DNA from: TPA_inf: Saccharomyces
Taxonomy: Eukaryota
NCBI GenBank assembly: GCA_000146045.2
Contig: BK006944.2
Coordinates: forward strand, 544,001 to 608,000
Length of the DNA stretch: 64,000 bases
Reading direction: 5' to 3'
This document shows positions 1 to 39,395 of this stretch, piece after piece; positions within the stretch are counted from its first letter, which is position 1; each line of letters starts with the position of its first letter. The notes below the pieces were generated by a model that was not told where the DNA came from, searched no databases, and worked only from the letters and a program-made list of their open reading frames with translations. Made by a program: the position numbers and the translations under genes.

Positions 1-3000
1 CACCATCCTTTAACTCCACCAAGATTTTATTTACAGAGGTAAGCATGTTAACCTGTGAAAATAGCGATTTATACATCTCAAATTGTTTGACAGCTCTCGG
101 CAGTTCATCCGCCCTCCGAAGAAAGTTTGCCAAATCCGATTGAAGTAGCAATACATCTACTCTACACCACGGCGTTTCGAAAGTTCTTTGAACATCTTCC
201 CAAAGGTTTTTAATGCTCCTCCAAACTAGGTCATACGTTTTGACCTCTTCAACCACGTGTGTTAGCTGGTCATTCAAAACAACGGGGATCAGTAACATTT
301 TTGCAGCGGCTGCGACAGAGTGCATCTTTTTCTTCAATTTAGTAATTGATTCATTGAAAAACTCTAGGATTTTAAGTGCTTCAGGTGGAGTTAATGTTGG
401 AGATATTGGTTTTCTGACTGACCAACTTTCGTTCAAAGATTGTGAGAGATTATTGATATTTTCAACGCCTTCTTCTAGACTTTTTGCTATAACAACGCGA
501 TGTTTTTGCAACTCTTGTTCAACATAGCTCAAACTTTGCCTCAACGAACTAAAATCGTTATCGAGCTGGTCTATATAGACAAAATGCGATGGAAACCTCA
601 CCTTCAGCTTTGTAAGCGCCCTCATAACAGACCCAAGCAGCTTGATTTGGATATCTCGTTCAGTGAGATGCCTTTTATTTACATTGACAGCCTCAATGAT
701 CACTGTTATATTCTTTAAAGAGGTAAAATTTATATCCATATCCTCGACAGCTTCTCTGTCCCTGTTCATATCTTCATGCAATTTTCTAGCATCGCGTTCA
801 TATATTGTTAAGAGATGCTTGCTGACATATAAGATCCAAGAATCCATTTTCGAACGGATATGACGTTGCGCATCTTCTGTATGAAGCACTAAGTTCTTTG
901 AAAAGTTATTTCGGCTTATAATTAGATCGAATTTTGACTGAGAATCAAGAAGGCCTTTTAAAATTCCAAAGCATCTTTGTGTACTGTTATCGACTACTTC
1001 TAAAAACGCTTCCTCTGTAATTTGCCAGAGAAATTCCATCTTTTGCCATTCTTTGACGTAAGAATTTATCTTACAATGTAAATTTTGAACCTGTTCTATA
1101 CAATTTTGTATATCATCTTTTAGTTTGATGACTAGCGAATTAAAAGTCAGGGTAGTGGAAAGAGGATGATCAGGGTCATGCAAAAAATTAATTAAAACAA
1201 CTTTGTTTAAAAGAGCCTCAATATCCTTCAGTAAAGAACGTTTCATAGCAGCTAACGATGGAGATGATGTTATTCTACCTTCATTGAAACTGAGTTTCAA
1301 TACATGCTTTGGGAAATGCATTTTTTTCAAATTTAAGCGTACTTTCTCCAAGATTATGCTGATAATTAAGTTATTAAACGTGGAAATATGGTCACTAACA
1401 TTAGTAAGACCCTTGGTAAAAAGATTTTCAAAAATAGCTTGAATATTGCTTATTATTTCCTCCACTTCGTGCAGATCATCAGCAGTACCGTCAAAAGATT
1501 TCAGGCCAGAAAATTCCTTGGCAAACTGAGGCTCGGAGTTTTTCAATATTTGATAATCAGAAAGAATTCCATCAATTGACTTTTCCAATCTTGCTAGGCT
1601 GTGTACCGAACAGGACATTTCGGAACTTTCCTCTTGTAAAGATTCCCACGGCGTTATCAGAATTTGTTGTAATAGTAGCCATACAGTTTGCACGTTTCTC
1701 TTCAGAAAGATGTTCGTGTAAAATGTATAGGAAAGTGATTTACTAAGTGAAAAAAAAGTTTGAATTAGTTCAACCAAGTTTATTGCCCTCGGATACAAAT
1801 ACATGTAAGTTCTCGCAATACGTACTATGTGGCTAGGCACTTGAAAAGCCATATAGGTTAAACTCCTTAATTCCGAGTAAGCAGCAGCTAAGGCAAAATC
1901 GAAGTTGACTTTTAGTTCATAATCATCCTCATTATTTCTTATAAGCTTTAAAATAGGTGTCGTCAAAAGATTTGCTGTTGCTTTTTCAGGAAAATTCCCC
2001 AACCAGTGAAGGAACACATCGTGAGGATTTGTTTCCTTACGTAGTTGTACTATCGAAGTTGATATCGAACGCCCTTCAAGTGTGTCATTCCAATTAGAAC
2101 CAAAAAGTGCTTCGAGATACTGCACTATATTGTCAATACGGGATTGTACATTCAGAAAGTAGGAAATTCTTGCAGATATGGGAGGAATGTTATTTAAAGC
2201 TTCCACGTGCAGAATTTTAGGCAAGAGCTCTAAACCAGTCTCCAGTTGCCGTATATCTTTTTTTATTTCAAGTAGCAGTATCTGTTGATTCTCTAGTACT
2301 TTTACTTTTATCCTAGGACAAAGTTCCATTAATGGCTTGAATTTTACTAGATAACTTAATTTTTCGGTTGGACAGTGATCAGAGTCCATAAAACTTGCCA
2401 ACGTATTTTGTAACTTCTTTTCCAAATCGAGCATGTTTTTACTGAATTCACTTTCGGCTTGCTCCAATTTCAATCGAAAATTCACGGAAATATCATGGAT
2501 CTGCTCAAATGGATGATACAATCTCTGTATTTCTTCGTGATAAGTAGAAGGGGATATACTCTTAATGGTTTCTGCCAATGAAAAAAATCGCTTGCGTGTG
2601 CTTAAAATTTCATCCAAAGTAGCCTTTACGGATGCACTTGTAAATGTTAGCTTTTGTATAAGTAGCTCCTGTGGTGCTCTTTTCCTAAGATCCTCTCTTA
2701 TTAAAAGATTGACATCCTGGACAATATCATCCCATTCTTCTATCATGCCTGCTGATTTTTCATATAAACCCAAAAAAGAACCATACTCTAGCTGAAATAA
2801 ATCTGAAAGATTACTTAGAATTGCATCCATGACTTCTTGTGAAATTTTGTCCATCAGCACAACAAATCTTTGAACTGGATAACCTGAATATCTGAACTTC
2901 TTCAAAGAAGATGCTAAAACAGGAAATAGTTCCTGCAAGTCCTCAAGATTGCTTGCCTGGCGAACCTCATCGATAGGGATTGACGATAGAAATTGGTTAT

Positions 3001-3925
3001 ATTTATCCGCTAGCTTAAATTTATCTGAAAGTGAACCTTCATTCAATAAATTTGTTAAATTATGAAATCTCTTTGCGTTTGTTAGAACGGATAGACACAC
3101 CTGAAATTCTTGGCTTTGTGTTTGTTCAATTAACGACTTCAGTACTTCGTAGAAATTCGACCAAAACTCAACTTCGTCTAAAAAAGAACCATTTTTTATA
3201 TCTCTGTCAATGGCTAATGTTTGTTTAAGAACCAAAAACCATTTGTTTGCAATGCTTTGTAAAATGTTCAAAAATCTCATACTTTCCAAATCATTACTAG
3301 GAAGGTAGTTTGCATAATCATGTGAAGTAGCCCCTTTTGATACAGCCAATTTGATAATGCTAGGGACCATCGCTAAAAGATCTGGCGTTTCAATTGAGGT
3401 ATGTAACTGTTGAAATTGTTTAGAAATGTCGTCAAGTTTCCTCCTCGTTTTATCTATAGTTTCGACAGAATATGTCTTTGTATCTGATTTTATCAATTGG
3501 CCAAACACAGACGATACGCCATGTGTGATAATTGAGGCCAGGTTCCCCGCATTTACTGGACCAGGTAAGTATATGGCACTTATTTGTGTTGCAATCGGTT
3601 CTGCATCCACAATAACACTTCTAGATTTAATAATTAATAGAGTAGAATACTTTTTATTCGCCAAGTTGGCATCATATATAGCCTCTTCACCAATGTCTAT
3701 TGTAACTATTGTTCTATCCAGCTCTTCAAAAAGGAAGACAAACAACGTGTCGAACTCTCTCCCATCCAATAATCCCAAAAAAAATTGAAACCGTTCAAGG
3801 TATTGACAATGTAGATAATCAATGAATGCTTGCTCATTCTCTTTGGGAGAATTCTTTATACCCGTTACAGTAGCTGCAACAAATTCTATCAGCTCATTAG
3901 CAAGTCTTGCCTCATTCTTGCACAT
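1..3925 (-). CDS. DYN1: Cytoplasmic dynein heavy chain, N-terminal ~1308 codons; start codon at complement 3923..3925; CDS continues beyond window start
   Basis: Reverse-complement of 1..3925 translates without stops. It starts MCKNEARLANELIEFVAATVTGIK, the N-terminus I recognise as yeast Dyn1. It sits divergent from RHO4 as expected for YKR054C. The ORF track omits it because its stop lies outside the window. Confidence 0.85.
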   Translation of the reverse strand, partial: MCKNEARLANELIEFVAATVTGIKNSPKENEQAFIDYLHCQYLERFQFFLGLLDGREFDTLFVFLFEELDRTIVTIDIGEEAIYDANLANKKYSTLLIIKSRSVIVDAEPIATQISAIYLPGPVNAGNLASIITHGVSSVFGQLIKSDTKTYSVETIDKTRRKLDDISKQFQQLHTSIETPDLLAMVPSIIKLAVSKGATSHDYANYLPSNDLESMRFLNILQSIANKWFLVLKQTLAIDRDIKNGSFLDEVEFWSNFYEVLKSLIEQTQSQEFQVCLSVLTNAKRFHNLTNLLNEGSLSDKFKLADKYNQFLSSIPIDEVRQASNLEDLQELFPVLASSLKKFRYSGYPVQRFVVLMDKISQEVMDAILSNLSDLFQLEYGSFLGLYEKSAGMIEEWDDIVQDVNLLIREDLRKRAPQELLIQKLTFTSASVKATLDEILSTRKRFFSLAETIKSISPSTYHEEIQRLYHPFEQIHDISVNFRLKLEQAESEFSKNMLDLEKKLQNTLASFMDSDHCPTEKLSYLVKFKPLMELCPRIKVKVLENQQILLLEIKKDIRQLETGLELLPKILHVEALNNIPPISARISYFLNVQSRIDNIVQYLEALFGSNWNDTLEGRSISTSIVQLRKETNPHDVFLHWLGNFPEKATANLLTTPILKLIRNNEDDYELKVNFDFALAAAYSELRSLTYMAFQVPSHIVRIARTYMYLYPRAINLVELIQTFFSLSKSLSYTFYTNIFLKRNVQTVWLLLQQILITPWESLQEESSEMSCSVHSLARLEKSIDGILSDYQILKNSEPQFAKEFSGLKSFDGTADDLHEVEEIISNIQAIFENLFTKGLTNVSDHISTFNNLIISIILEKVRLNLKKMHFPKHVLKLSFNEGRITSSPSLAAMKRSLLKDIEALLNKVVLINFLHDPDHPLSTTLTFNSLVIKLKDDIQNCIEQVQNLHCKINSYVKEWQKMEFLWQITEEAFLEVVDNSTQRCFGILKGLLDSQSKFDLIISRNNFSKNLVLHTEDAQRHIRSKMDSWILYVSKHLLTIYERDARKLHEDMNRDREAVEDMDINFTSLKNITVIIEAVNVNKRHLTERDIQIKLLGSVMRALTKLKVRFPSHFVYIDQLDNDFSSLRQSLSYVEQELQKHRVVIAKSLEEGVENINNLSQSLNESWSVRKPISPTLTPPEALKILEFFNESITKLKKKMHSVAAAAKMLLIPVVLNDQLTHVVEEVKTYDLVWRSIKNLWEDVQRTFETPWCRVDVLLLQSDLANFLRRADELPRAVKQFEMYKSLFSQVNMLTSVNKILVELKDG

Positions 3926-35826: not shown

Positions 35827-36750
35827 TTAAAAAACAACCTGGTTCCTATAAAAAATGTCTTCTTCCATAGTGCCAAATGTATAGTTGCTGAACTCATAAT
35901 GAGCTTCTTTTATTGTTTCATCAGAATGAGAACTATTTTGATGGTGATGGTGATGATGGCGACGATGGTGACGGCGATGGTGGCGGGAATGTTGGATATC
36001 GTTTATGTTGATGAGGGATTCGCGGATAGTCCCCTTTGAGTCGATCTCCCTCTTCATCACGGCTTGGTTAAACTTCAACTTCCTGGGGAATTGTTCCTTC
36101 TTTTCGTTCATAAGGTCTTCAGAATCTTCATCTATGGAGGAAATTTTAGTGCATGTAGAATGCTGGTCGAAAATGGAAGACGTGTGAGAATCAACAGACG
36201 ATGGGCATGAAATGTCTTCTAATTTCACCAAAGCGTTGTCATTGCTCTCTATAGAAGCGTTAATCTCATCCACCTCCTCGGTTACCCAGCATTCCGTATT
36301 TTTCTTTAAAGCAGATTTTAGATTTTTTGTTTGTTTCTGGTCAATTTGGTTCTGGACCGGCGATATTTCGTTTTCATTACTATCTATGTTAGTCAAATCT
36401 GGACCGTACAACACCGTTACATCGGTTTCTTTGTTCCAGTTGATGGACAGTGGATTGGATTTGGAGTTCTGTAAACCATAGTGATTTATGGACCAACGCC
36501 TCCAGAGGCAATGATGTAGCCTAACGAGGTACATGTTGTAATCTAGCACGTCCTCTGAAGAGCAACTTGGTAATCGAAGTAGTTTATGTTTGCGCATCTT
36601 CAATAGTAGTGTCCATGAAGCCGATATTTCCAAGCTTGCATCATTAAATTCATGATGGAAATAGTCAATCGCAGGCTTGTTGTAGTTGGTCATGTTATCC
36701 AGTAACATTATATTCTGGTACGAAATTATTGTATCGTCCAAACTAGTCAT
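35827..36750 (-). CDS. Protein of unknown function, glucose-regulated, with C-terminal His/Arg-rich repeat, 307 aa (YKR075C)
   Basis: Complete 307-aa ORF with a real ATG. HSRHHRRHHRRHHHHHHQ is encoded by ATGGTG-type repeats at about 35938..35985 (plus strand). Confidence 0.8.
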   Translation of the reverse strand: MTSLDDTIISYQNIMLLDNMTNYNKPAIDYFHHEFNDASLEISASWTLLLKMRKHKLLRLPSCSSEDVLDYNMYLVRLHHCLWRRWSINHYGLQNSKSNPLSINWNKETDVTVLYGPDLTNIDSNENEISPVQNQIDQKQTKNLKSALKKNTECWVTEEVDEINASIESNDNALVKLEDISCPSSVDSHTSSIFDQHSTCTKISSIDEDSEDLMNEKKEQFPRKLKFNQAVMKREIDSKGTIRESLININDIQHSRHHRRHHRRHHHHHHQNSSHSDETIKEAHYEFSNYTFGTMEEDIFYRNQVVF

Positions 36751-36882: not shown

Positions 36883-36900
36883 ATATATATATATATATAT
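36883..36900. repeat. (AT)9 dinucleotide microsatellite upstream of YKR075C
   Basis: atatatatatatatatat read directly. Confidence 0.9.
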
Positions 36901-37011
36901 GTTTGTTTTTGCTAAGACCCGGTAACTGTACTTTTTCTGCAGTCATCCAAGGGAAGACAAAAGAAGAAAGAAAAAACAAGATTAATGTCCCCAGGTTTTT
37001 TCTTTTCCTGG

Positions 37012-37264
37012 CGGAAAAAGCTCAAATCTAACATTTCCCCGCGGGGGTTTCTTTGTAAAGAGTATCGAGTCGGAAACGAAAAAAAAAAAAAGATGAGAAA
37101 ATGAATTTTTCCGGTCGCCTAAAGATAGAGGTACCAGCGGAAAAAATGCAGCAAAAGCAAAATACCCCATTCAAGTTCCCCCTGTCTCGCCCCTCTCACG
37201 CTTCACTGTCCCCCGCTTTCGGTTTTTCCGGCTACGGCATTTCTGTTGAAAGTTGCCGGAAAAA
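37012..37264. promoter_or_regulatory. Cluster of five CGGAAAA (Rgt1-type CGGANNA) sites, both orientations, 260-515 bp upstream of YKR075C
   Basis: CGGAAAA at 37012..37018 (+), 37107..37113 (-), 37138..37144 (+), 37224..37230 (-), 37258..37264 (+). Palindromic CCCCGCGGGG at 37037..37046 also lies in the span. Confidence 0.6.
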
Positions 37265-37276
37265 CCCCAAAAAGCA

Positions 37277-37294
37277 TAAAAAAAAAGAGCGGGG
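37277..37294. promoter_or_regulatory. Mig1-like site: A-tract followed by GC box (AAAAAAAAAGAGCGGGGGG)
   Basis: A9 followed by GAGCGGGGGG. Resembles the Mig1 consensus (AT-rich 5' of SYGGGG) but with non-canonical spacing. Confidence 0.35.
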
Positions 37295-37898
37295 GGAAGA
37301 AAAAAAGATTCCTTTCTATCTTTTCCTTCCCCGGCCTATTCGGGTACTCGCTTCCGGGTCCGCTGTCGTTTATAATGATTAGTGCAGAGAGCTTTCTTCT
37401 CTTAGTTTTTCATGTGGTAAAGGCAATGCCATTTAGAAGGATACTACGTGGGGTTCAAAACCGTGAATACGTTGTCTATCGTGTTATGTATGTTCTGAGT
37501 TTCTTTTTGTCATTCTACTAGTTTATGGACTGGGACTATGTATCTTGCAGTATGATTTCGTCAGGAAGCTTGTCATAGCAAGGCCTGAACAAATCGTACG
37601 TTAAAATAAAAATGAGCACCAATTCGAGTCACTGATGCCTACTGCTCAATCCAACCATCTAGTTCTGCAAAGATACTTACTCCGCATAATTAAAAAAATA
37701 AGGTATTTTAAAGTTGTGTAGTGACGAATGTAGTGACGCGGAAACGTTTTACTCGTCAATGGACATTTGCGAATGTGTCCGATAAATAGTTGAGGCTTTT
37801 CCTGCATTCTGTCAAGAAGGGTATGTGTATGAACATGCAAATGACACTGTAAAATGATTCATTACCCTGATTATGGAGTGATTTTCTTTCCTTTTTTT

Positions 37899-37909
37899 TT
37901 TTACATTTA
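37899..37909 (+). promoter_or_regulatory. Perfect 11-bp ARS consensus sequence match TTTTACATTTA at the 3' edge of a T11 tract
   Basis: Matches WTTTAYRTTTW 11/11, inside the 1.5-kb YKR075C-ECM4 intergenic region. Could be a chance match. Confidence 0.25.
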
Positions 37910-38103
37910 GTTTCATTATTATGCAAATTAGAGGGTATACAGTTGAGATTTTAACACTTTGAATTAAAAAGTGTTACAGAGGAAACCGACGCAAAAGGCT
38001 TGGTGACGCAAACTTTTCCATCTTTATTTCACCTCTTCAGACGGTCCTAAGACCTTTTGAACGTATCAATATAGTTTTATCATCTGTTCTCTGTTGTTCT
38101 CCG

Positions 38104-38170
38104 TTACTAAGATATTAGTCAGCTCTTGAAATTTCACACCCCTATTTATTTGTCTTAGCGTCCAACCCCT
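38104..38170. promoter_or_regulatory. Two Yap1-type response elements (TTACTAA 38104..38110; TTAGTCA 38115..38121) and an STRE (CCCCT 38166..38170) in the ECM4 proximal promoter
   Basis: Motifs read directly, 115-180 bp upstream of the ECM4 ATG. Confidence 0.5.
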
Positions 38171-38282
38171 CTCAACCCTTTTCCATTTCTTGTATAAAGG
38201 TAGTTAATTAGGTAACGCTGCTCTTACCATCACTACAGTGCTTACGAGAATTTACCCAAACCCTGCGCAAGATAAATAAGAA

Positions 38283-39395
38283 ATGTCGAAACAGTGGGCG
38301 AGTGGTACAAACGGAGCTTTCAAAAGACAGGTTTCGTCCTTCAGAGAAACAATCTCTAAGCAACACCCAATTTATAAGCCAGCAAAGGGAAGATATTGGT
38401 TGTATGTTTCACTTGCATGCCCATGGGCCCATAGAACACTAATTACGAGGGCTTTGAAGGGATTAACCTCTGTTATAGGATGTAGCGTAGTCCATTGGCA
38501 CCTTGACGAGAAAGGATGGAGATTTTTGGACATGGAAAAGCAATTGGAGGACAGTGAAGATTTTTTGGAACATTGGCACGATGTTGCAGGTGGTATTAGA
38601 ACTGCTAAAGAGGATTCCAGCAAGAGCTTCGCCGAGATCAAGAATGACAGTCAAAGATTCATGGTTGATGCTACCAATGAGCCTCACTATGGATACAAGA
38701 GAATCAGTGACTTATATTACAAGAGCGATCCTCAATACTCGGCAAGGTTCACCGTCCCAGTCCTGTGGGACTTAGAAACCCAAACAATTGTTAACAACGA
38801 AAGTAGCGAAATTATAAGGATTTTGAACTCTAGTGCGTTCGATGAATTTGTCGACGACGATCACAAGAAAACGGACCTTGTTCCTGCTCAGTTGAAAACA
38901 CAGATCGATGACTTCAATTCTTGGGTTTACGACAGCATCAACAATGGTGTATACAAGACCGGATTCGCAGAGAAAGCAGAAGTTTACGAAAGTGAAGTCA
39001 ACAACGTATTTGAACATTTGGACAAAGTGGAGAAAATCCTGAGTGACAAATATTCCAAATTGAAGGCCAAATACGGTGAAGAAGATAGACAAAAAATCTT
39101 GGGTGAGTTCTTCACTGTGGGTGATCAATTAACAGAAGCTGACATTAGATTGTATACTACCGTCATAAGATTCGATCCTGTGTACGTCCAACATTTCAAA
39201 TGCAATTTTACCTCTATTAGAGCCGGATATCCATTTATTCATTTGTGGGTAAGAAATTTATACTGGAATTATGATGCCTTCAGGTACACAACAGATTTTG
39301 ACCATATCAAGTTACACTACACGCGTTCCCACACAAGGATCAACCCCTTGGGAATTACGCCCCTGGGACCCAAGCCAGATATTCGTCCTTTATAA
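38283..39395 (+). CDS. ECM4: Omega-class glutathione transferase, 370 aa (YKR076W)
   Basis: Active-site CPWAHR motif (YVSLACPWAHRTLI). GST N- and C-terminal domains. Confidence 0.9.
   Translation: MSKQWASGTNGAFKRQVSSFRETISKQHPIYKPAKGRYWLYVSLACPWAHRTLITRALKGLTSVIGCSVVHWHLDEKGWRFLDMEKQLEDSEDFLEHWHDVAGGIRTAKEDSSKSFAEIKNDSQRFMVDATNEPHYGYKRISDLYYKSDPQYSARFTVPVLWDLETQTIVNNESSEIIRILNSSAFDEFVDDDHKKTDLVPAQLKTQIDDFNSWVYDSINNGVYKTGFAEKAEVYESEVNNVFEHLDKVEKILSDKYSKLKAKYGEEDRQKILGEFFTVGDQLTEADIRLYTTVIRFDPVYVQHFKCNFTSIRAGYPFIHLWVRNLYWNYDAFRYTTDFDHIKLHYTRSHTRINPLGITPLGPKPDIRPL

Follow-up and report, generated by a model that had tools for sequence, protein, structure and literature searches.

The window analysed here, a stretch of DNA 64 kb long, contains an open reading frame on the minus strand (35827-36750) that is predicted to encode a protein of 307 aa with 99% identity to an S. 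cerevisiae protein. Syntenic orthologues named YKR075C are found in S. paradoxus, S. mikatae, S. uvarum and S. arboricola, and on these two grounds we identify this ORF as the regulated gene in what follows. Its divergent neighbour is an ECM4-like ORF of the GST family (38283-39395, plus strand, 370 aa), which we take to be ECM4 (YKR076W); an ECM4-like gene is also divergently upstream in all four of the other Saccharomyces loci that we retrieved. The two ORFs are separated by 1532 bp, as expected from an earlier reading of this DNA made from the sequence alone (the sequence-only reading), which had described an unusually long intergenic region of 1.5 kb. Comparison of the YKR075C protein with Pfam showed no domain at E<=0.01. 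There is a His/Arg-rich tract, HSRHHRRHHRRHHHHHHQ, near the C-terminus of the ORF. In SGD the protein is described as Reg1-like. An Rfam scan of the long intergenic region returned nothing but sub-threshold chance matches, and a hidden RNA gene was rejected on this basis. A hidden coding region was also rejected, since the ORFs at 36982-37170 and 37101-37382 overlap alignment columns that contain indels of 1-2 bp.

Elements of the YKR075C promoter

Exact copies of CGGAAAA are located at 37012 (+), 37107 (-), 37138 (+), 37224 (-) and 37257 (+), in alternating orientation. The count, the orientation and the first four positions are those of the sequence-only reading, but the last site begins at 37257 rather than 37258. 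Each copy extends to the octamer CGGAAAAA, and five of the six such octamers in the window are in this array, which covers 253 bp (37012-37264) and lies 262-513 bp 5' of the YKR075C ATG, very close to the 260-515 bp estimated before. We refer to the sites as R1 (37012-37019, plus strand, nearest the gene at 262 bp from the ATG), R2 (37106-37113, minus strand), R3 (37138-37145, plus strand), R4 (37223-37230, minus strand) and R5 (37257-37264, plus strand, farthest from the gene at 513 bp from the ATG); R1 and R2, like the others, match the octamer exactly. The same block contains a conserved near-consensus element overlooked in the sequence-only reading, CGGAAAC (37071-37077, plus strand), which fails CGGANNA at position 7 and is a putative sixth Rgt1-like site. 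We considered whether the CCG...CGG pairs R2/R3 and R4/R5 originated by duplication and found no support for this because the spacers between the sites have no similarity.

Rgt1 recognizes CGGANNA and binds synergistically to the multiple copies of this motif in HXT promoters (PMC3639059), in line with what the sequence-only reading had said about the protein. Several clustered CGGANNA motifs are what defines a promoter with an HXT-type, Rgt1-regulated upstream repressing sequence, and five copies of CGGAAAAA in 253 bp have this form.

GC boxes of the type (G/C)(C/T)GGGG are interspersed with these sites. The block at 36960-37400 contains four GCGGGG, one CTGGGG and one CCGGGG, so that boxes of the kind required of a Mig1/Mig2 element are present, although the motif alone carries little information; the related SYGGRG with an AT-rich flank has 38 matches in the window. 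The case for these boxes thus rests on conservation rather than on counts. The best candidate for a Mig1/Mig2/Sdd4-type site is A9-GA-GCGGGGGG (37278-37296, plus strand), with an AT-rich 5' flank in which seven of eight bases next to the GCGGGG at 37289 are A or T. This is the A9-GAGCGGGGGG element of the sequence-only reading, which exists as described but lies 1-2 bases from the coordinates 37277-37294 assigned to it there. A second box, missing from that reading, is GAAAAAAC-CTGGGG (A6C-CTGGGG, 36989-37002, minus strand); it has an A-rich 5' flank (six of eight bases A or T at 36989) and fits W5-N-SYGGGG. The GCGGGG box that adjoins R4 (37211-37216, minus strand, where it reads CGGAAAAACCGAAAGCGGGGG) is borderline, with A or T at five of eight flanking bases, and has a GCGGGG at the equivalent position in all five species. 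Finally, the palindrome CCCCGCGGGG is located at 37037-37046, exactly as had been noted, and consists of two overlapping GCGGGG boxes. Only 3-4 of eight flanking bases are A or T, and because of this poor AT flank it is not a canonical Mig1 site. It is conserved in four species and degenerate in S. arboricola (CCACCGTGGGG).

Other elements were found in and around the array. An A13 poly(dA:dT) tract (37079-37091, plus strand) lies inside the array, is kept in all five species and may have a role in nucleosome exclusion. A (TA)9 tract at 36883-36900, approximately 135-150 bp 5' of the ATG, is the likely TATA element of YKR075C; all five species have a TA-repeat in the corresponding position, and its length varies. 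Two STRE-like AGGGG elements (37179-37194, minus strand) are located in a conserved block between R3 and R4, and the sequence that contains them, GAGAGGGG, is largely conserved in the alignment. Two Leu3-type motifs, CCG-N4-CGG, overlap the GC box and R4 (37213-37222 and 37228-37237) and were likewise not part of the sequence-only reading. CCGN4CGG is absent from the promoters of S. paradoxus, S. mikatae, S. uvarum and S. arboricola. Since S. cerevisiae alone carries the motifs among the five Saccharomyces species, this distribution suggests that they (37213-37237) are a recent gain in S. cerevisiae. It also agrees with a caveat in PMC6548505, where a Leu3 ChIP signal is reported in S. cerevisiae and the Leu3 motif of S. 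uvarum is described as doubtful.

Chance and conservation

The heptamer CGGAAAA is not enriched in the window as a whole (9 observed versus 10.9 expected in 64 kb). Its clustering, by contrast, is non-random and far beyond chance. Five sites were never reached in 20,000 dinucleotide shuffles of 36960-37300 (mean 0.47) and were reached once when the whole intergenic region was shuffled 20,000 times, and the largest cluster within 260 bp in 300 shuffles of the whole window had three sites. A Poisson estimate for five-site clustering gave approximately 6e-7.

Full-length alignment of S. cerevisiae with the syntenic loci of S. paradoxus, S. mikatae, S. uvarum and S. arboricola showed that 36 of the 40 octamer positions are invariant in the five species. 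Outside the octamers, 40% of positions in the 36960-37400 block are invariant, and elsewhere in the intergenic region the figure falls to 15% (Fisher 9e-10). No bases of the 1532-bp intergenic region are better conserved than the Rgt1-type sites, which form the phylogenetic footprint expected of an Rgt1-regulated promoter with sites under purifying selection. In S. paradoxus and S. mikatae the position, orientation and spacing of the sites (33, 84-86, 31-33 and 89-95 bp) are all kept. R3, R4 and R5 are invariant in all five species, and in each of them R2 and R3 are 31-33 bp apart and R4 and R5 exactly 33 bp. R2 is conserved in four species and reads CGGAGAA in S. arboricola, where it still fits CGGANNA and the arrangement is otherwise kept. 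R1 is kept in S. paradoxus, S. mikatae and S. arboricola; S. uvarum has lost this site alone (TTTTCCCA) and retains four of the five.

As an unbiased check, we listed the longest runs in the intergenic region that are invariant in the five species. The list returned Rgt1 sites, GC boxes and the TATA element, with three short runs containing no motif interspersed among them. It includes the 9-bp run GTTTTTCCG that contains R4 (37222-37230), the octamers of R3 and R5, GGAAACGA overlapping the CGGAAAC element (37072-37079) and ATATATAT within the (TA)9 tract (36887-36894). Both GC boxes with an A-rich 5' flank are represented as well, by GAGCGGGG (37287-37294) in the A9GA-GCGGGG box and by TCCCCAG (36988-36994) in the CTGGGG box, where AAAAAACCTGGGGA is conserved in the alignment. 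A further run, ACACCCCTATTT (38136-38147), is near ECM4 and is the longest of the whole intergenic region.

These results bear on the idea that the five heptamers are a functionless chance product of a stretch that is rich in A/T tracts and contains CG. A window-wide count at the level of chance and a block rich in A and T runs would agree with that idea, but composition-matched local shuffles do not yield five sites, the site positions are invariant far more often than neighbouring bases, similar clusters are seen again upstream of the paralogue and of distant orthologues, and ChIP-seq occupancy has already been published (both below). Conservation and the ChIP data refute it, the shuffles are also against it, and we consider its probability negligible.

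Assignment of the array to YKR075C

The intergenic region is divergent and common to both genes, which raises the question of whether the array controls, or also controls, ECM4 rather than YKR075C. Repression by Ssn6-Tup1 can spread some distance, and this too would allow for an effect on ECM4. However, the ECM4 ATG is 1020-1270 bp away from the array, compared with 262-513 bp for that of YKR075C, and the middle of the region between them (37450-38050) is approximately 0% invariant. This lack of conservation indicates that the region contains two separate promoters. ECM4 has a conserved island of its own (38136-38172) with two STRE-like CCCCT elements.

Evidence from related genes also bears on this point. 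The YOR062C paralogue is flanked by RPL3, CKA2 and SLD7. We examined it in S. kudriavzevii and in a Logan-assembly locus that we took, without confirmation, to be S. cerevisiae YOR062C. In these two species the YOR062C promoter contains three CGGAAAA, one CGGAGGA and one GCGGGG at 220-450 bp upstream, and the sites are conserved between the two loci. We also examined single-copy orthologues from species without a second copy. In Torulaspora globosa, GC boxes accompany four CGGAAAA and one CGGAACA between -450 and -150, and in Zygosaccharomyces rouxii there are two CGGAAAA and one CGGAGAA. The Nakaseomyces bracarensis orthologue has ten exact CGGAAAA in an upstream region of 2070 bp with 33% GC (positions 431-2500 of the N. 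bracarensis locus, L010); four other CGGANNA are found in the same region, and the array is much larger than that of S. cerevisiae. The promoter of Lachancea quebecensis contains no exact CGGAAAA, with weak matches only (two CGGAACA, together with two GCGGGG). The conserved N-terminus of this orthologue begins at Met68, and its gene model (2501-3511 of its locus, L008) therefore appears to have been started about 67 codons too far upstream. Immediately 5' of the called start, CGGAACA is followed by GCGGGG approximately 19 bp on, and this unit occurs twice, 41 bp apart. Over ten loci, the density of CGGAAAA is 3.13 per kb in promoters of the family versus 0.14 per kb elsewhere in the same loci.

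Apart from that of Nakaseomyces, all the single-copy loci have RPL3 as upstream neighbour, and RPL3, not ECM4, is upstream in four of the five cluster-bearing loci (the two YOR062C loci, T. globosa, Z. rouxii and N. bracarensis). The persistence of the clusters beside a different upstream neighbour shows that the array belongs to the YKR075C/YOR062C family and not to ECM4. Distance, the non-conserved spacer and the family promoters with another neighbour led us to rule out the assignment to ECM4, which we regard as very unlikely. From the distribution of the motifs, the cluster in YKR075C-family promoters probably predates the yeast whole-genome duplication. In the paralogue and, beyond Saccharomyces, in the pre-duplication species, the order and spacing of the Rgt1 sites are not kept and the content of the cluster alone is kept.

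Factor binding, glucose response and related promoters

The sequence-only reading had proposed a comparison with Rgt1 ChIP data, and published ChIP-seq does place Rgt1 at the YKR075C promoter (PMC6548505). That study, which used saturated and exponential cultures, described a cluster of Leu3, Sdd4 and Rgt1 motifs in this promoter in S. cerevisiae and S. uvarum, with all three proteins robustly bound; apart from the TDA1 promoter (TDA1pr), it is the only locus with robust ChIP-seq binding of the three (PMC6548505). With this occupancy, the conservation of the sites and their recurrence in paralogous and pre-duplication promoters, the earlier identification of an Rgt1-type cluster in the YKR075C promoter holds and the attribution to Rgt1 is correct.

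CGG triplets are read by many Zn2Cys6 proteins, and Rgt1 has a paralogue from the whole-genome duplication, Eds1. The CGGAAAAA sites might for these reasons be used mainly by another zinc-cluster protein such as Eds1, with Rgt1 having a minor role. We consider this highly improbable: occupancy by Rgt1 has been directly reported at this promoter, the octamer fits CGGANNA and the cluster is also present in pre-duplication species that have a single ancestor of Rgt1 and Eds1.

The proteins that act on the GC boxes are less clear-cut. In the TDA1 cluster, which is analogous, the GC-rich motif is stated to match "several similar motifs, including Sdd4 and Mig1", and it is Sdd4, not Mig1, that was required there and that binds robustly to the YKR075C promoter (PMC6548505). 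The palindrome and the box at 37211 are without good AT flanks. It is therefore possible, and we hold it as a tentative alternative, that the boxes are mainly sites for Sdd4 (Ypr022c), Mig2/Mig3 or another C2H2 protein and do not form a classical Mig1 glucose-repression element. On the other side, two of the boxes are preceded on the 5' side by AT-rich sequence, as is typical of Mig1 sites, and neither varies among the five species, YKR075C is labelled a member of the MIG1 regulon in the reference set used by PMC3159452, and the same boxes could serve Sdd4 and Mig1 under different conditions. Of the Mig1-like elements in the sequence-only reading, the GC boxes are real and the regulon label links the gene to Mig1, but the palindrome has no AT flank and the boxes fit Sdd4 and Mig2 too. 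Mig1 rather than Sdd4 or Mig2 may be the protein acting on them, although this assignment is weak.

Rgt1 together with Mth1/Std1 and Ssn6-Tup1 represses transcription when glucose is absent (PMC3639059), whereas Mig1 represses at high glucose, and the opposing balance of Rgt1 and Mig1 sets the glucose range in which HXT genes are expressed (PMC12668610). Because Rgt1 represses without glucose, the five sites predict induction by glucose and not repression by glucose. The description of YKR075C as a "glucose-repressed Rgt1/Mig1 target" in the sequence-only reading was accordingly right about Rgt1, but its sign of regulation follows from the GC boxes alone. Rgt1 sites combined with Mig-type boxes lead us to expect behaviour like that of HXT2 and HXT4, with expression at low to intermediate glucose. 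Taken together, the block at approximately 36985-37300 is very probably the upstream repressing and regulatory region of YKR075C, with five Rgt1 sites of the high-affinity type, a near-site, GC boxes and a predicted HXT2/HXT4-like response.

In the mechanism that we propose, Rgt1 would bind cooperatively to the five sites in the absence of glucose and, together with Mth1/Std1, recruit Ssn6-Tup1 and turn YKR075C off. When glucose is present, sensing by Snf3/Rgt2 would remove Mth1/Std1, Rgt1 would be phosphorylated and repression would be lifted. The GC boxes among the Rgt1 sites, most clearly those at 37278-37296 and 36989-37002, would be sites for C2H2 zinc-finger proteins of the Mig1/Mig2/Sdd4 type; at high glucose, Mig1/Mig2 would add repression and produce a band-pass response like that of HXT2/HXT4. 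In saturated cultures Sdd4, and in S. cerevisiae also Leu3, occupy the same cluster. Which individual sites are used and what shape the glucose response has are points that we infer from this arrangement. Most likely, Rgt1 keeps YKR075C repressed when there is no glucose and Mig-type repressors dampen its expression when glucose is high, as for HXT2 and HXT4.

Expression of YKR075C is reportedly regulated by glucose and Rgt1, and its SGD description reads "expression regulated by glucose and Rgt1p". The regulation of YKR075C and YOR062C has also been called "dubious" and treated as hypothesised (PMC2661888). YKR075C was not found in the supplements of the Mig1/2/3 array study PMC2631581, and the supplements of PMC2661888, PMC2631581 and PMC6548505 contain no usable statement on its regulation.

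The cluster in the YKR075C promoter is a known regulatory region, already described by published ChIP-seq and footprinting, and its mechanism is standard. What we add is the octamer identity of the five sites, figures for their conservation, the elements missed before, how deeply the cluster is conserved in the family and a corrected sign of regulation. The promoter is a textbook example of repressor sites that form a homotypic cluster and are under strong purifying selection. The function of the gene is of more interest than its promoter. The YKR075C/YOR062C family has probably been a target of Rgt1 since before the yeast whole-genome duplication, and this points to a long-standing place for the uncharacterised protein in glucose signalling, as a component or as an output.

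Three known systems are closest to this promoter. It resembles the HAS1-TDA1 promoter, an element for inducible homologue pairing, in having Leu3, Sdd4 and Rgt1 motif types in one compact cluster (37211-37264 in S. cerevisiae) and in being bound by all three proteins in saturated culture (PMC6548505). The three motifs are thus found within approximately 200 bp and the three factors are bound. However, the YKR075C cluster is more spread out than the 47-bp cluster of TDA1pr, its strict Leu3 consensus is specific to S. cerevisiae, and the three motifs do not occur on both homologous copies in a hybrid, since CCGN4CGG is absent from the four other species. Pairing was not detected at YKR075C in an S. 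cerevisiae x S. uvarum hybrid, nor at any locus besides TDA1pr and HXT3pr (PMC6548505). Because the S. uvarum copy is without a clean Leu3 site, the hybrid leaves room for pairing of two S. cerevisiae copies, and both S. cerevisiae homologues carry the complete cluster. On this ground the promoter could be a second TDA1pr-like element for inducible homologue pairing, or for clustering with other Rgt1-bound loci, in saturated S. cerevisiae cultures, but we think this improbable. The promoter of the paralogue YOR062C shares the CGGAAAA cluster and the GCGGGG, and differs in having fewer sites, another order and spacing, and RPL3 in place of ECM4 as divergent neighbour.

The HXT promoters provide the third comparison. 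Using conserved promoter motifs only, a footprint analysis ranked pairs of genes genome-wide by predicted co-regulation, and YKR075C-HXT3, YKR075C-HXT2 and YKR075C-HXT4 all came within the top 60, so that YKR075C is grouped with HXT2, HXT3 and HXT4 by its conserved-footprint content, and the pairs with HXT2 and HXT4 carry a common MIG1 regulon label (PMC3159452). HXT2 and HXT4 are under dual repression by Rgt1 and Mig1, opposing repressors that belong to the Snf3/Rgt2-Rgt1 and Snf1-Mig1 pathways (PMC12668610). Unlike these genes, YKR075C encodes a small uncharacterised protein that has no Pfam match and is not a transporter, and its five sites are all the same strong octamer rather than mixed CGGANNA variants. 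Like them, it has a long promoter in which SYGGGG GC boxes lie among clustered CGGANNA motifs of both orientations.
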